A DNA stretch of 32,346 nt from Catajapyx aquilonaris (taxonomy: Eukaryota): NCBI GenBank assembly GCA_000934665.2, contig KZ539141.1:1-32346 (forward strand), given 5' to 3'. The position numbers and the translations under genes are program-made. The first letter of the stretch is position 1, and the number at the start of each line of letters is the position of its first letter. The notes below the pieces were generated by a model. The model had not been told where the DNA came from, did not search any database, and worked only from the letters and a program-made list of their open reading frames with translations. This document shows positions 8,506-20,200 of the stretch, one piece after another.

Positions 8506-9073
8506 GTAATTATTAAAAAATCTAACTTAGGGAGGCTCTCATTAAGATCACTGCAGTAGTGTACTCCACATGACCCAACCGTTGGACGCACTTGGGGTCA
8601 AACGGTGGCCGCTCCGTTACCATTTTTTTGGCTTTTTAAAAATGTGTCGGATACGACACATGTGAGCGGACATGGGTCGAGTGGATTTTGTTGTGTCATA
8701 ATTTTTTTGTGATTGATGTTAGTAGGTTAGCGGCTTTTGAGAAGCTGGCATGGCAAGCAATAAGTCATTGACTGCTAAAGGAAGAGAGGATTCTGTTGGA
8801 AATATTGCAGTCTATCTACACCAGAGGTACACTAAAGTTACGTCTGTTTTTAAGAGTGTGGTCGTGTTGTTTCAATAAGCTTCAATCGTTGCATTTATTG
8901 ACAAATTTAAAAATTAAATACAGTTGAAAATCCGGATATAACAACCTTAAAGGGACCACATTGCCACTTTTTGCAATATTTATAATGGATTCACAGTGAA
9001 ATCAAGCGTCTTTTGGATGACCTTGACCAAATTTTCTAACTACATTTTGTTTCTCGCAAGGTGTGAGGAGACA

Positions 9074-10166
<1,093 letters not shown>

Positions 10167-14500: not shown

Positions 14501-15047
14501 TTCCCACCTTCTTTCGTGCAGAGTTGGGCCATCTCTGGCTTCGTTTCGGGTGGCAATTTCCGATAGACTAAGCCACCCGGGGGAGTTCACAAAATGACCA
14601 ATTAACGACAGCGCACATGCACTTTGCACATCCCCTCCTAACGACCCGTGAAACACACTAAATACTTTCAGTATACTAGTTTCACCACAGATGGTGGTAG
14701 CCCACCCCCCTAAACGAGCCTCAGGCTCGAGCACGGGGTATCAATAATAAAAAATAAATAAAAATAAAATAAAATAAAATAAAAAAAAACTTGTTCATGC
14801 AAAGCTGTACCTATATCTGTCAAATTGGATGGATATGATTTATGCAGTAGGCTACACCTAGCTTTGAGGTTGCACTTGTGTGTATTAAAATGCATTCGCG
14901 TGCCATGTGTGACCATTCAGTGCACAATGCATCCTGTCATGTACCTGCCTTCCGAGATACTGACCTCCTTTATGTTTGCCAGAACGGAAGAAGCTGGCAG
15001 CCAAGCAGAGAGCAGCTGCGTGGGACGGAACGATAGGAGACCTTTAA
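11583..15047 (+). CDS. R3HCC1L: R3H and coiled-coil domain-containing protein 1(-like), 8 coding exons, ~486 aa
   Basis: Exons 11583-11596 (short, least certain), 11700-11828, 12217-12357, 12738-12841, 12898-13421, 13525-13771, 14140-14376, 14983-15047 (1461 nt, in frame). R3H motif VLLFPAVSSYHRFLIH...TFSVG...RRTVVC, RRPDQQVYVPKARR, SWDALYDDSGDCL, RRM-like HVLELYNFPADFKTQDL..IKWVDDTHALAIF, PYKPRPQTSASLARRLVSSALG, C-terminal coiled coil. R3HCC1 versus R3HCC1L cannot be resolved by eye. Confidence 0.88.
13221..13340 (+). repeat. Coding 18-bp tandem repeat (QAAPVL, ~6.5 copies) in R3HCC1L-like exon 5
   Basis: CAAGCCGCACCGGTACTA-type units translate as QAAPVLQAAPVL...QDAPILQDAP. Confidence 0.9.
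14427..14786 (+). mobile_element. tRNA-derived SINE in last intron of R3HCC1L-like gene
   Basis: Pol III A-box-like TGGCGCCGCGG and B box GGTTCGATCCC near the 5' end, (AAAAT)n/A-rich tail, and perfect 16-bp TSD AAACTTGTTCATGCAA at 14411-14426 and 14787-14802. Confidence 0.9.
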
Positions 15048-15405
15048 CATAGATGGTGTGAATATATGTCGAACCAGAACGGCAGTGAATTGGAATAGCG
15101 CCGAAGCGTACCTGGAGCATGAACTGGCTGACTGCAATTGTGTGTGAAGATTCGACTGGTGCAGATTACTATCGAAAGCTGTTTGTCCTGTGGGCAACAC
15201 CTGTACTCGGTACTTTTCATACGTTGCTGTTCAGGTTCACTCTATTCTTCCTGCCCTTTAACTTTGGTACAAAAAACAATTTAGTTGTATATTTTCTTGC
15301 TTGTTTGTTAAAATAAATATAACTGTGTTTGGACAACTTTTATTTAGTACAAACTTTCTTACAACAGAATGTCAGTCAAGTATGGAGGAATGATAAGAAA
15401 CGGTA

Positions 15406-16752
15406 TCAAAAATCCATCACGTCATCCATGATGGGCTCCACGTCTGGGGAGTCGAGGCCTGAGTCATCATATGGCAGCCAGCAGTCGTACTCGGGCTCCT
15501 CTAGGGTCAGGTCCACAACTAAAAAAAGCAAAACAGGTATGAGTTTTATGATTTATAATCGCTGTAACTGTTTGCCCAGTACCTTCGTCGTCGTCGTCGT
15601 CGTACCTCCTCTGTCGGTCGCAGTTCATGAACACAGCCAGGAGCTGATCCTCTATCTCCTCAAGGGCGTTCTCAAGTTCCACGATGTCGTCATCCTCCTG
15701 CGGCATGAAATCTGGCTCGGGATAGTCATCCTCGTTCATAGGCGGCTCCACGACTATCTCCACCCTCCTGAACAGCTCCTTCTCCACAGGCTTCTCATCC
15801 GGTGGCTTCAGCGGGGTCGGAATGACAGCAGGCTTCTTCAGCGGTATCCCCAGCCTAGTGTTGGACTGGAACGGTGTCTGTTTGAAGGCATTGCTCACAT
15901 CTCCGAAAGTCCGGGCTGGTGTCATCAGGGTGTCCACTCGCTTTGTAACTGAAATGATGTCATGAAATTGCATTAGATTGCTCCATTTTGTCCTGAATTG
16001 AGTGCAATATTGCCTAAAAACCCAGTAATTATGTCAAATTGCCCAATTATTCATTAGAACGTTCCTTTTGTCCTGAATCGAACACAATATTGCCAAATTC
16101 TCTCATTATTCATTAGAACATTCCATTTTGCCCTGAAGCGAACGCAATATTGCCTAATTATTCATTAGAACGTTCCATTCCCCCCCTTCCCCATTTTGTT
16201 CTGATGAATCGAATGCGGCCTAGTAATGAATTGCCTCATGATTCATTAATTCATTAGAACGTTCCATTTTGTCCTGAATCGAACGCAATATTGCCTAATT
16301 GCCTAATTATTTATTAGAACGTTCCATCCCCCCACCCCCTTCCCCTTTGTGTTCTGAATCGAATGCAGCCTAGTAATGAATTCTCATGATTCATTAATTC
16401 ATTAGAACGTTCCATCTTGTCCTGAATCGAACGCAATAANCCCCCCTCCCCATTTTGTTCTGAATAGAATGCTGCCTAGTAATGAATTGCCTCATGATTC
16501 ATTAATTCCTTATAACGTTCCATTTTGTCCTGAATCGAACACAATAGTGCCTAATTGCCTATTTATTCATCAGAACGTTCCATTTTGTCCTGAATCGAAC
16601 GCAATATTGCCTAATTGCCTAATTATTCATTAGAACGTTCCATCATCCCCCCTCCCCCTCAATTTTGTTCTGAATCGAATGCGGCCTAGTAATGAACTGC
16701 TTCATGATTCATTAGAACGTTCCCATTTTTTTGTCATGAATCGAAAACAGCA

Positions 16753-16791
<39 letters not shown>

Positions 16792-16915
16792 CTTCTTCAC
16801 CTGAAGGCCCACCACGATGAGCGGCAGCGGCCTTGAGTGTGGCGGGAGTTGCTTGTGGCAGCACGAATCGAACGTCCGGGTTCTCCTTCATCCCGACGAC
16901 GTTGGCTGCCATCAT
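15406..16915 (-). CDS. Uncharacterised ~197-aa protein, putative securin (PTTG/Pimples/Pds1-like separase inhibitor), 3 coding exons
   Basis: Exons 16915-16801, 15948-15583, 15518-15406 (594 nt, GT-AG, phase 1/1). KEN box at residues 10-12, D-box-like ARTFGDVSN, several TP Cdk-type sites, basic/proline-rich N half, acidic C half, DDYPEPDFMP motif, and AATAAA on the minus strand at 15339-15344. The gene model is firm; the family call is motif-based inference. Confidence 0.7.
15970..16745. repeat. Minisatellite with two alternating unit types (~55-60 bp and ~80-85 bp) filling intron 1 of the securin-like gene
   Basis: Recurrent CATTAGAACGTTCCATTTTGTCCTGAATCGAACGCAATATTGCCTAATT alternates with a C-tract variant ending GCCTAGTAATGAATTGCCTCATGATT. 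Confidence 0.9.
16760..16787. repeat. (TA)n microsatellite next to the securin-like exon 1 donor
   Basis: About 14 TA units are directly visible. Confidence 0.9.
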
Positions 16916-17200
16916 TCCTCTTTCCAACAGCTCGAACTCGGTTCTAGGGACCGGTTTTAGGATGAAAAAATGAAGAACCAGACCTGAGAAAGAGACAGAC
17001 ACCGAATGCGGGTTCCACAAGAACGTTCCACAACAAAATCAGGGTTGCCAGATGCACACACACCCGGCGGCTTCTTATCAACAGGGTTGCCAGGTGGGAT
17101 GCTCCAGCTGGCAACACGCGGTGGAAATGTGGCAGCGTTGTGACTGGTGTCGCCGGCTGTCGGGCGAACGGGGCAACTAGGGAGCTACGACCTGGCAAAG
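16916..17200. promoter_or_regulatory. Bidirectional promoter between securin-like gene and SRP72
   Basis: Only 285 bp separate the divergent ATGs. The region is CpG-rich, with CAGGGTTGCCAG twice (17040, 17082) and inverted CTGGCAAC (17108). Confidence 0.75.
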
Positions 17201-20200
17201 ATGGCGGCGGCCAAGGGCAAAAACTTGAGCTCGCTCTTCGCTGAATTGAGCAAATTCGGGCAGAATGGGAACCACGACAGGGCGGTCAAGACTGCGGATA
17301 GGAGTGAGGACTTTGGGAGTACCCAAATCACTAGAATTAACGGCCGTCTGAAGGCCTGGAAGGAGATGAAAGGACGCCATATGTTGTGTGCATGCTTACC
17401 ATTCACTATATTATCAAGTGTGGTGTTCGAAAACTTAATTTTTGTACATGTCACTACCTTTCATGGTCTAATTAACCGCAACATGAACTACCTTACATGA
17501 TCAATGTCTGTTTAATTCATTTCTCTTGAATCAGTTTTACAGGAGGCTCCTACCAACCAGACGGCCTTTCATTGCAAAGTGGTGTGTCTCATTTACCAGC
17601 AGAAGTTTGAAGAGGTCCTGCAGGTCATGGGAAAGAATCAAAAGCTAGCTGGGTTAGTATGTCGCTCCAAACTGCTTTTAAATGTATAAACTACACTGTA
17701 CTTATGATTATCCGGGTGCAAATTATCCGTGCTTCGCCAAGAAAATAAAAAATAAAATAAAAATAAAAAAGCAGGGTACAGTGTGTGCAGTAGGTCATTT
17801 AAAACCTCTGAACAGCTCATTTTTAGGGTATCGAGAACCATTTTCCGATTATCCAGCGACACCCGTGCATTCATTAGACCAGATAATCAGGAGTACAGGG
17901 CATTAGGTGCTAACACTTAAAATCTTTGCATCGTTGCAATATTTTTCAGCGATATAGTAACTATTTTGATGTATGATAGTGATCAAATGTGCCAAGTGTT
18001 AATGAGAATTTCGTGGACTTTATTTTTGCAGGCCTCTGGTTCTGGAGAAGGCTTATGCGCAGTACAGGCTGAATCGCCCTCAGGATGCTCTGGTCACGCT
18101 CTCTTCTGAGCAGACCCTGAGCATGGATCTTAAGGAGCTCAAGGCGCAGGTGTTGTACCGCCTGGAGAGATATGAGGAGTGCTACGACCTTTATCGGGAC
18201 ATCATCAAGAACAGCAATGATGACTATGAGGATGAGCGGGAGACAAACTTCTCAGCTGTTGTGGCCAATCTTGCCGCAGAAGGAACGGTAAAGGACGGCT
18301 GCTCTTTTGTTCATGTTACGATTAGTTGAAGCAAGTACTGCTTGGCCCACTGAGTGATATTTCAACATGTGCATAATTTGTTGGCCCAAGCAAAGTGTAA
18401 TCTAGCTACACCCAGCTATTAATGATGGAGGAGTGACCTTGCCACTCCCTTGTTTACTACTATTGATTGTGGAAACATGCCAAAGGCTCTGCCTTAATTG
18501 CTTCTGGTTTATAGGGCTGAAGTCTGTCAAAAAATATATTTTTGTGATTATCTGTTGCAAAATTAGATGTGGTAGTAAATGCCTCTGCCTTTTGCAGTAT
18601 ACTCATAAGGTTTTCAAATCTGTAACATCGTCATCAAATCTGGTACTTTCAGTGAGCATTCACCCATTTCAATTATGTCAAATGCTTAACAAACGCTGAT
18701 TTGCTTTTCAGACTCGTGAGATGCCCACCCTGCGTAACCACACTTATGAGCTGTGCTACAATGCTTCTTGTCGCTCCTTGGCTCAAGGAAAGGTGGCTGA
18801 AGCACAGCAACATCTCCAAGAATCTGAGAAGTTATGCCGTGAGATGTTGGAGGAAGATGCAGAGGAAGGGGGCCCATCAGAAGAGGACATTGCGGAGGAG
18901 CTTGGCATAATTCGGGTTCAGCAAGCATACTGTTTGCAGCTGAAAGGGAACGAGAAATCATCGTTGGAGACCTACCAGGCGACATTGAGACGACGGCCTG
19001 CCGACATAGGTTTGGTTGCAGTTGCTTCCAACAATGCTGTGGCCATCAACCGTGACCAGAATGTGTTTGACTCAAAGAAGAAGATGAAGGCTGCCACTGC
19101 TGAGGGTGTTGAGCATAAGCTAACTTCTTCTCAACGTGACGCAATCCTCCTGAACCAGACTCTTGTAGCACTGCATACCAATCAAAATGAACAGTGTCGG
19201 CGTCTGTTAGCAACAATGGAAACGCAGGGTGGAGGTAAAGACGCCGCACTCATTCAAGCAGCACTCTTGGCACGTGAGAAGAAAATCAGCGATGCCCAGA
19301 AGGTGCTGGAACGGTATGCATCATCTCATCCAGATGAATTGCTAGCCATGAATTTGGCAACAGTGCAACTTCTGTTGGCCCAGGGGCAGATCCCAGATGC
19401 CTGCAAGACACTCCGTGCTCTTGGTCCACATACACACAAGCCAGGAATTGTCAGTGCATTGGTAACTCTGTACATGCACCTTAGTGACCTTCCTGCTGCA
19501 TCTGAGGTAATCTCTTTTCACTTTGTTCATGCAGATATGATCACATACTTTCGCAATTTTCTTCAGGTTTTGAAGGAGGCAGTGTCTTGGTACCAGCATA
19601 ATAAGGGTGGTCCCCGTTCAGCATTGACTTCGATGTGGCGCCAAGCAGCCTCTTTCCATCTGAGGTCAGGAGAAGCATCATTGGCAGCGCAGAGTCTGGA
19701 GGAGCTGCGCAAGACGGACCCCAAGAACCAGCACACTCTGGCCCAGCTGGTTATTGCCTATGCCCAATGTGACCCACCTCGTGCCAGGCAGCTGAGCCAG
19801 GAGCTTCCGCCGCTTACCGAACAGATCCAGGCTCTGGATGTTAACCTGCTGGAGAATATCAGTTGGACAGCCGGGAGCAAAAAGAAGGGTGGAAAAGATG
19901 CTGCCACTCCTAAGATTGGGTATGTAACCGGTGTTGAAAAGTGAATGTGGATTGCACTCGTACAATTTTTAAAAGTATATGAATAATTTTGGCAGTTGCA
20001 TTGCCAAACGTCAATGGGATTACAATTCTCACAGAGATCATTTTCACTGCAGGACTCCGGGATCGGACCTGATACAGCAGAAGAAGAAGAAGAAAAGGAA
20101 AGTTCACCTGCCCAAGAACTATAATCCCAACGTGGACCCTGACCCTGAAAGGTGGCTTCCGAGGCATGAGAGGGCTGGGTTCAAGAAGAAGAAGGACAAG

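Follow-up and report, generated by a model that had tools for sequence, protein, structure and literature searches.

Securin acts as the brake on chromosome separation. Whether a gene on the minus strand of contig KZ539141.1 of Catajapyx aquilonaris (assembly GCA_000934665.2) encodes the securin of its arthropod lineage is the question raised by this locus; the window is the whole stretch of DNA that was analysed, 32,346 nt long (positions 1 to 32,346), and all coordinates refer to it. Passages of PMC6690013 and PMC6743357 state repeatedly that securin is unfindable by sequence in many lineages, and a survey of meiosis genes in Daphnia omitted securin for that reason, as a passage of PMC2680839 explains. 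Among the titles and passages returned by a literature search, no paper describing a securin of a non-dipteran arthropod turned up. We propose that the 197-residue product of the gene is probably the securin of this lineage, of the PTTG1 type; an earlier note on this DNA had already taken it for a securin. The proposal is partly supported, by the architecture of the protein, by a collinearity with human securin that was seen by eye and is unscored, and by a weak lead from a protein language model.

The gene consists of three exons (16915-16801, 15948-15583 and 15518-15406), whose coding parts total 594 nt, that is, 197 codons and a stop. It had been described as hidden in the list of open reading frames (ORFs), which is evident from the stop-to-stop ORFs of the minus strand: they break the gene into fragments of 108, 188 and 48 amino acids. 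Both introns are of the GT..AG type and in phase 1, with lengths of 852 nt (intron 1) and 64 nt (intron 2), and each splits a valine codon as G/TT. Exon 1 translates into 38 residues (N-terminal letters MMAANVVGMKENP). Exon 2 contributes 121 residues by its in-frame part (15946-15583), among them ARTFGDVSN, TPAR, TPLK and DDYPEPDFMP, and exon 3, read from 15516, gives 36 residues followed by TGA at 15408-15406, with DVEPIMDDVMDF as the C terminus of the protein. The motifs named in the earlier note (these four and a KEN box) are all found in the translations at the places where it had put them.

Splicing was examined with the public run X1, the sole run listed for this stretch (0.32 of sampled words; the kind of run is not on record), of which three contigs align within 15000-17400. 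One contig of 757 bases aligns to 16996-16801, 15948-15585 and 15520-15327, skipping both introns. Its first junction is exactly the predicted 16801/15948. The second matches the predicted 15583/15518 if three extra letters in the contig are taken as one added GAC (Asp) codon; the aligner placed it at 15585/15520 because the AG is common to both sides and fits either one. Both junctions predicted in the earlier note are thus supported by one spliced contig. What is seen is the spliced form, which, coming from a single contig of a run whose kind is not on record, is formally not proof of RNA.

This dependence on one run and one contig is also what could be said for the view that the locus does not code for protein and represents a non-coding transcript, an assembly artefact or a processed DNA copy. 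However, the two GT..AG junctions keep a frame of 197 codons open, and when the 754-nt spliced transcript was shuffled 5000 times, only 2 shuffles reached a frame of at least this length. All three base differences between the contig and the window, in codons 177, 178 and 182 (15454, 15466, 15469), are synonymous, and the only indel is a whole codon. Moreover, the contig begins 81 nt ahead of the start codon, the first ATG of the transcript opens the 197-codon frame, and the contig ends 12 nt past the last base of an AATAAA. These results make a non-coding origin extremely improbable, and the gene is almost certainly real, spliced as predicted and protein-coding.

The composition of the protein changes sharply along its length. 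Residues 1-100 have an isoelectric point (pI) of 10.5, with 16 Lys and Arg against 8 Asp and Glu, and contain 13 Pro; residues 101-197 have a pI of 4.05, with 3 Lys and Arg against 37 Asp and Glu. The basic N half and acidic C half that had been read from the letters are thus confirmed by calculation. Such a basic-to-acidic polarity is a securin trait. It can be seen by eye in the human sequence given in a figure of PMC6858450. In passages of PMC10317155 and PMC6858450, securin is described as a disordered protein that binds separase in the antiparallel direction as a pseudosubstrate. AlphaFold2, run on the exon-2 peptide as a single sequence, predicts a helix at peptide residues 86-118, with a block value of the predicted local distance difference test (pLDDT) of 87-88 over residues 91-110, and coil with pLDDT 50-68 outside the helix. 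The protein is predicted to be mostly disordered apart from this one helix, so that disorder and polarity together agree with what is expected of a securin. Its only tryptophan, W173, lies in WLPYDD, within exon 3.

Sequence conservation among securins is very poor (passages of PMC6690013, PMC10317155 and PMC6858450). According to passages of PMC6690013, the features conserved among them are limited to an N-terminal KEN box and destruction box (D-box) and a Glu patch that is pivotal for separase inhibition. In human securin, the KEN box is at 9-11 and the D-box at R61-N68 (passages of PMC2173548). The protein studied here carries KEN in its N-terminal part, at residues 10-12, and a KEN inside the first 30 residues was found in only 0.4% of 20000 composition-preserving shuffles. 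It is the only statistically unusual motif of the protein. KEN is common to many substrates of APC/C, the anaphase-promoting complex/cyclosome, and, together with two full consensus sites for cyclin-dependent kinase (Cdk), it would also suit another APC/C-regulated cell-cycle protein, a KEN-box substrate or an inhibitor without action on separase, for instance a lineage-specific regulator, or a substrate of separase and not its inhibitor. The separase-substrate version of this explanation gains from EKELFR, which fits the separase cleavage consensus (S/D/E)xExxR given in a passage of PMC10317155, is followed directly by another Arg (residue 100) and lies 17 residues ahead of the candidate pseudosubstrate patch DDYPEPDFMP. 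However, a cleavage site of this type appears in 19-22% of shuffles and is possibly due to chance.

A securin is favoured over such a protein by the comparison with human securin, whose sequence was taken from Supplementary Fig. 7 of PMC6858450; this sequence also bears out the human motif YPEIEKFFP that the earlier note had given. The fission-yeast motif DIEYMP, likewise given there, appeared in none of the papers searched. Eight anchors are collinear in the two proteins at nearly identical residue numbers, as judged by eye and without a score: KEN (human 9, arthropod 10), R-Φ-V (17 and 16), TP(x)R(x)FG (43 and 48, the human stretch being TPRFG at 43-47), EKxV (95 and 90), DD(A)YPE (108 and 112), F-Φ-P (117 and 119), a single Trp (174 and 173), and DVE(L)P with, after it, a C terminus of the form D-[IV]-x-D-[IF] (190, as DVELPP..DIDI, and 186). 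DDYPEPDFMP resembles human DDAYPEIEKFFP at 108-119, of which EIEKFFP is the pseudosubstrate (passage of PMC6858450). The lengths are 202 residues in human and 197 here. Both proteins have a basic N half rich in Pro and Lys with Cdk-type TP sites, and both have an acidic and hydrophobic C-terminal part in which an acidic patch at about 108-121 begins the segment that interacts with separase, a candidate segment in the arthropod protein. This agreement by eye in polarity, length and the positions of DDYPE..FMP and of the C-terminal tail counts against a different APC/C-regulated protein.

The same comparison bears on a second explanation, namely that the gene encodes a lineage-restricted acidic disordered protein with no role in the cell cycle, in which securin-like motifs arose by chance in low-complexity sequence. 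It would then be a large coincidence for eight anchors to be collinear, among them the single Trp and the C terminus, and a KEN as early as residue 10 is seldom produced by chance. Chance is nevertheless helped by the nature of the alignment, which was made by eye and post hoc, is unscored and has no shuffle control.

Apart from this weakness of the comparison, several results weigh against a securin, beginning with the motifs. A motif scan of the 197-residue protein found no canonical D-box (RxxLxxxN) at the expected mid-protein place. ARTFGDVSN is not of the canonical form: RTFGDVSN (51-58) spans 8 residues from R to N, as does human R61-N68, but has Gly at the Leu position, and its first residue is also the Arg of the Cdk site TPAR. 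The human D-box is thus left with no canonical counterpart, and the candidates are RTFGDVSN, RLGIPLKK and RFVL (16-19); 33-40% of shuffles contain an RxxL in residues 1-100, which makes RFVL weak on its own. In the passages of PMC10317155 and PMC6858450, the separase-interacting segment of securin opens with (S/D/E)xExx and then has a hydrophobic residue in place of Arg, and the order in human securin is 113-EIEKFFP, NxLxΦE, 130-LPE and a hydrophobic stretch. LPE and NxLxΦE are conserved in vertebrates and in only some other eukaryotes (passage of PMC6858450). The 197-residue protein has no NxLxΦE by motif scan and no [LV]PE, the sole LP of its C half being in LPY at 175-177, whereas human LPE stands 12 residues past the patch.

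The candidate patch itself departs from the human one. DDYPEPDFMP falls outside the strict [SDE]xExxΦ register, and EPDFMP (116-121) agrees with a relaxed pseudosubstrate pattern only, in which P4 is Asp and P1 is Pro; in the alternative register E116-x-x-F119, P4 would be Glu and P1 a large hydrophobic residue. EPDFMP is one residue shorter than human EIEKFFP, and either Glu (P6) or F-M-P can be placed in the human register, not both. The strict pattern is present at 129, 136 and 186. It also appears in 50-90% of shuffles and is uninformative, and the generic pseudosubstrate pattern carries no weight because acidic sequence yields it that often. The abundance of such ExE-type patterns in shuffled acidic sequence is in line with motifs formed by chance. 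So is the promoter, which is of a bidirectional housekeeping type and common with SRP72: CHR, CCAAT, E2F, DRE, TATA and Inr patterns were absent from the 334 nt that were scanned, and the absence of the cell-cycle elements among them is a further point against a securin.

To these are added the homology searches, in which the queries were single exon peptides or pieces of them, never the spliced 197-residue protein, and HMMER filters drop weak matches. None of the three exon peptides matched a Pfam family at E ≤ 10, including PF04856, the family of vertebrate securin, and HMMER gave no matches among 1.84 billion representative proteins at E ≤ 0.001. A word-indexed search of 5.8 billion proteins with exon 2 (121 residues) confirmed none of 4 candidates of near length and none of 229 longer ones, and none of 95 pattern matches of exon 2 in metagenome contigs was confirmed. 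In phmmer searches of PDB chain sequences at E ≤ 10, for which five queries were used (exon 1, exon 3, all of exon 2 and each of its two parts), no securin was found; PDB includes securin complexes, for example 7NJ1 and 5U1T, as passages of the papers cite them. The PDB matches that did appear are weak and unrelated (a PAF1 homologue, E = 0.49; DMIP24, E = 1.9; ING3, E = 0.18; eL34, E = 0.84). Every statistical test of membership was negative, and the searches do not place the protein in PF04856.

These blanks would please both alternatives, as there is no match to the securin family and no relative was detectable in any search. They weigh little, however, because the best matches of the neighbouring SRP72 gene in the same protein database also reach only about 50% identity, and the proteins of this species and of close relatives are missing from it. 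For a fast-evolving disordered protein, such blanks are to be expected and are no argument against a securin, and missing relatives are no mark of a lineage-restricted protein either. Moreover, the earlier note had regarded a confident match to another family as evidence against a securin, and none was found with Pfam, with phmmer against PDB or with HMMER against the 1.84 billion representatives, which also counts against a different APC/C-regulated protein.

A second lead, besides the human sequence, came from the ESM Atlas. With exon 2 as the query, two clusters of arthropod hypothetical proteins rank first, one of 181 aa (score 0.91) and one of 185 aa (0.90); the third is a cluster from chordates that bears the name securin and has PF04856 on 51% of its members, a score of 0.90 and 160 of 256 features shared. 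Among the clusters listed, it is the only neighbour that has a name and the only one that bears a Pfam family. By the measures of the tool itself, the lead is weak: recognition is 1644, below the level of 2300 that 91 of 100 known-family proteins reach, the 160 shared features are below the mark of 170, and 5 of the 10 best family-bearing matches agree on the family, where the tool grades 5 or fewer as "probably wrong". These measures also count against a securin. Nevertheless, the one named neighbour is a securin and not some other APC/C-regulated protein, and neighbours that are arthropod proteins of similar length together with a securin cluster count against chance motifs.

Taken together, the securin identity proposed in the earlier note has in its favour the KEN box, disorder, polarity, the anchors seen by eye and the Atlas lead, and has not gained a statistical match or a canonical D-box, LPE or NxLxΦE. 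A different APC/C-regulated protein appears to us unlikely, and an acidic protein with motifs formed by chance quite unlikely; a securin remains the probable identity.

Drosophila securin Pimples (PIM) acts with THR and SSE. In work of Stratmann and Lehner from 1996 and of Leismann and Lehner from 2003, PIM is said to be a small protein that is degraded through a KEN box and a D-box and inhibits separase. On these properties, PIM and the protein studied here, both from arthropods, are of about equal size. Some arthropods have separase divided between two genes and others do not, as a passage of PMC5921967 reports. Similarly, plant PATRONUS/RSS1, Candida Eip1, fungal Pds1/Cut2 and worm IFY-1 are functional securins that lack sequence similarity, keep only the KEN and D-boxes, the Glu patch and disorder, and usually escape searches by sequence (passages of PMC6690013 and PMC6743357). 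The arthropod protein appears to fit the pattern of these divergent securins. They differ from it in having been established by genetics and separase binding, whereas the arthropod protein is known from sequence alone.

From these features we infer that the protein is homologous with securin, binds separase and depends on the APC/C, and a mechanism can be proposed on that footing. The acidic C-terminal part (about 112-197) would run antiparallel along separase, with DDYPEPDFMP in or beside the catalytic cleft as an uncleavable pseudosubstrate, while the predicted helix (125-157) and the C-terminal tail may contact the helical regulatory domain of separase. The basic N-terminal part (1-100) would bear the degrons, namely KEN at 10-12, RFVL at 16-19 and perhaps the degenerate RTFGDVSN. 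At metaphase, the APC/C with Cdc20 or Cdh1 would ubiquitinate the protein, which would free separase to cut cohesin. Degradation or binding could be tuned through the Cdk sites TPAR, which overlaps the D-box-like stretch, and TPLK.

An extension of this mechanism, which we regard as improbable, is a securin that combines a decayed mid-protein D-box overlapping a Cdk site with a cleavable EKELFR into a self-sharpening switch. With its D-box decayed, destruction would proceed through KEN and the minimal RxxL, and phosphorylation by Cdk could act as its gate. At EKELFR, active separase could cut its inhibitor away from the half that bears the degrons. A self-sharpening switch in which separase cuts its own inhibitor is, as far as this analysis reports, undescribed for animal securins.

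If the protein is indeed a securin, it would supply a missing regulator for the annotation of the cell cycle and meiosis in this arthropod lineage, and would suggest that the vertebrate-type securin layout is older than the split of protostomes and deuterostomes. Securins among arthropod hypothetical proteins could then be sought with DDYPE..FΦP, the lone Trp and the acidic C terminus as a handle. Such a result would help the annotation of the arthropod cell cycle and the tracing of securin evolution; it would not surprise a specialist. The positions of the features of the gene are collected in Table 1.

Table 1. Positions in the window of the parts of the securin-like gene, of the motifs and predicted helix of its product, and of the promoter region shared with SRP72
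Feature	Positions	Strand	Remarks
5' untranslated region	16916..16996	-	81 nt; covered by the contig; no ATG
Exon 1, coding part	16801..16915	-	Residues 1-38 and base 1 of codon 39; donor CAG/GTGAAG
KEN box, residues 10-12	16880..16888	-	Motif scan
RFVL, residues 16-19	16859..16870	-	Sole RxxL (minimal D-box) of the protein
Intron 1	15949..16800	-	852 nt; absent from the contig
Exon 2	15583..15948	-	Residues 39-161, codons split at both ends; acceptor TTTCAG/TT, donor AAG/GTACTG
TPAR-TFGDVSN, residues 48-58	15890..15922	-	Full Cdk consensus site (TPAR, 48-51) and degenerate D-box-like stretch
TPLK, residues 83-86	15806..15817	-	Second full Cdk consensus site
EKELFR, residues 94-99	15767..15784	-	Fits separase cleavage consensus (S/D/E)xExxR
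DDYPEPDFMP, residues 112-121	15701..15730	-	Candidate separase pseudosubstrate patch
Amphipathic acidic helix (predicted), residues 125-157	15593..15691	-	AlphaFold2
(GAC)5 Asp run	15587..15601	-	Length-polymorphic; one extra GAC in the contig, in frame
Intron 2	15519..15582	-	64 nt; GT..AG; polypyrimidine tract; absent from the contig
Exon 3, coding part	15406..15518	-	Residues 161-197 and TGA stop; acidic
3' untranslated region	15327..15405	-	79 nt; AATAAA at 15344-15339; contig end at 15327
Short shared bidirectional promoter region, securin-like gene and SRP72	16997..17200	.	Between contig 5' end (16996) and SRP72 ATG (17201)

SRP72 lies head to head with the securin-like gene and is transcribed divergently from the plus strand. 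Its exon 1 starts with the ATG at 17201 and ends at 17303, where a GT donor follows, and a second X1 contig covers 17209-17303 of this exon. A further exon of 414 aa at 18700-19944 (plus strand) has tetratricopeptide repeat (TPR) families and matches SRP72 proteins; the best matches, at about 50% identity, are from polyneopteran insects, followed by other insects, spiders, horseshoe crab and centipede. From this level of identity, it is evident that the lineage is poorly represented in public protein sets. The start codons of the two genes are 285 bp apart, and the promoter that they share contains two CAACCCT and four GGCAAC/GTTGCC copies. CARCCCT is a core-promoter word of Drosophila. Within 17043-17121, CTGGCAACCCTG is present twice, with CAACCCT at 17089 and 17047 (minus-strand numbering), besides two more copies of GTTGCC.

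Repeats are abundant in intron 1 of the securin-like gene. Tandem Repeats Finder detected tandem units of 60, 108 and 148 bp that fill 16046-16643, and each unit contains the palindrome GAACGTTC, inside GGAACGTTC, of which one further copy is located in the promoter region near 17030. The intron also carries a (TA)14.5 microsatellite at 16760-16788, about 12 nt downstream of the exon-1 donor.

On the other side of the gene, a separate X1 contig of 496 bases ends at 15240, 87 nt from the 3' end of the transcript (15327), and extends beyond 15000; no Pfam families were found in the ORFs near this contig (15000-15240). Farther away, a 283-aa open frame at 8951-9802 (plus strand) encodes a C3HC4 RING finger (E = 1.4e-11) and, after it, the first part of a RAWUL domain, which is the layout of a Polycomb-group RING finger protein (PCGF/Bmi1-like).

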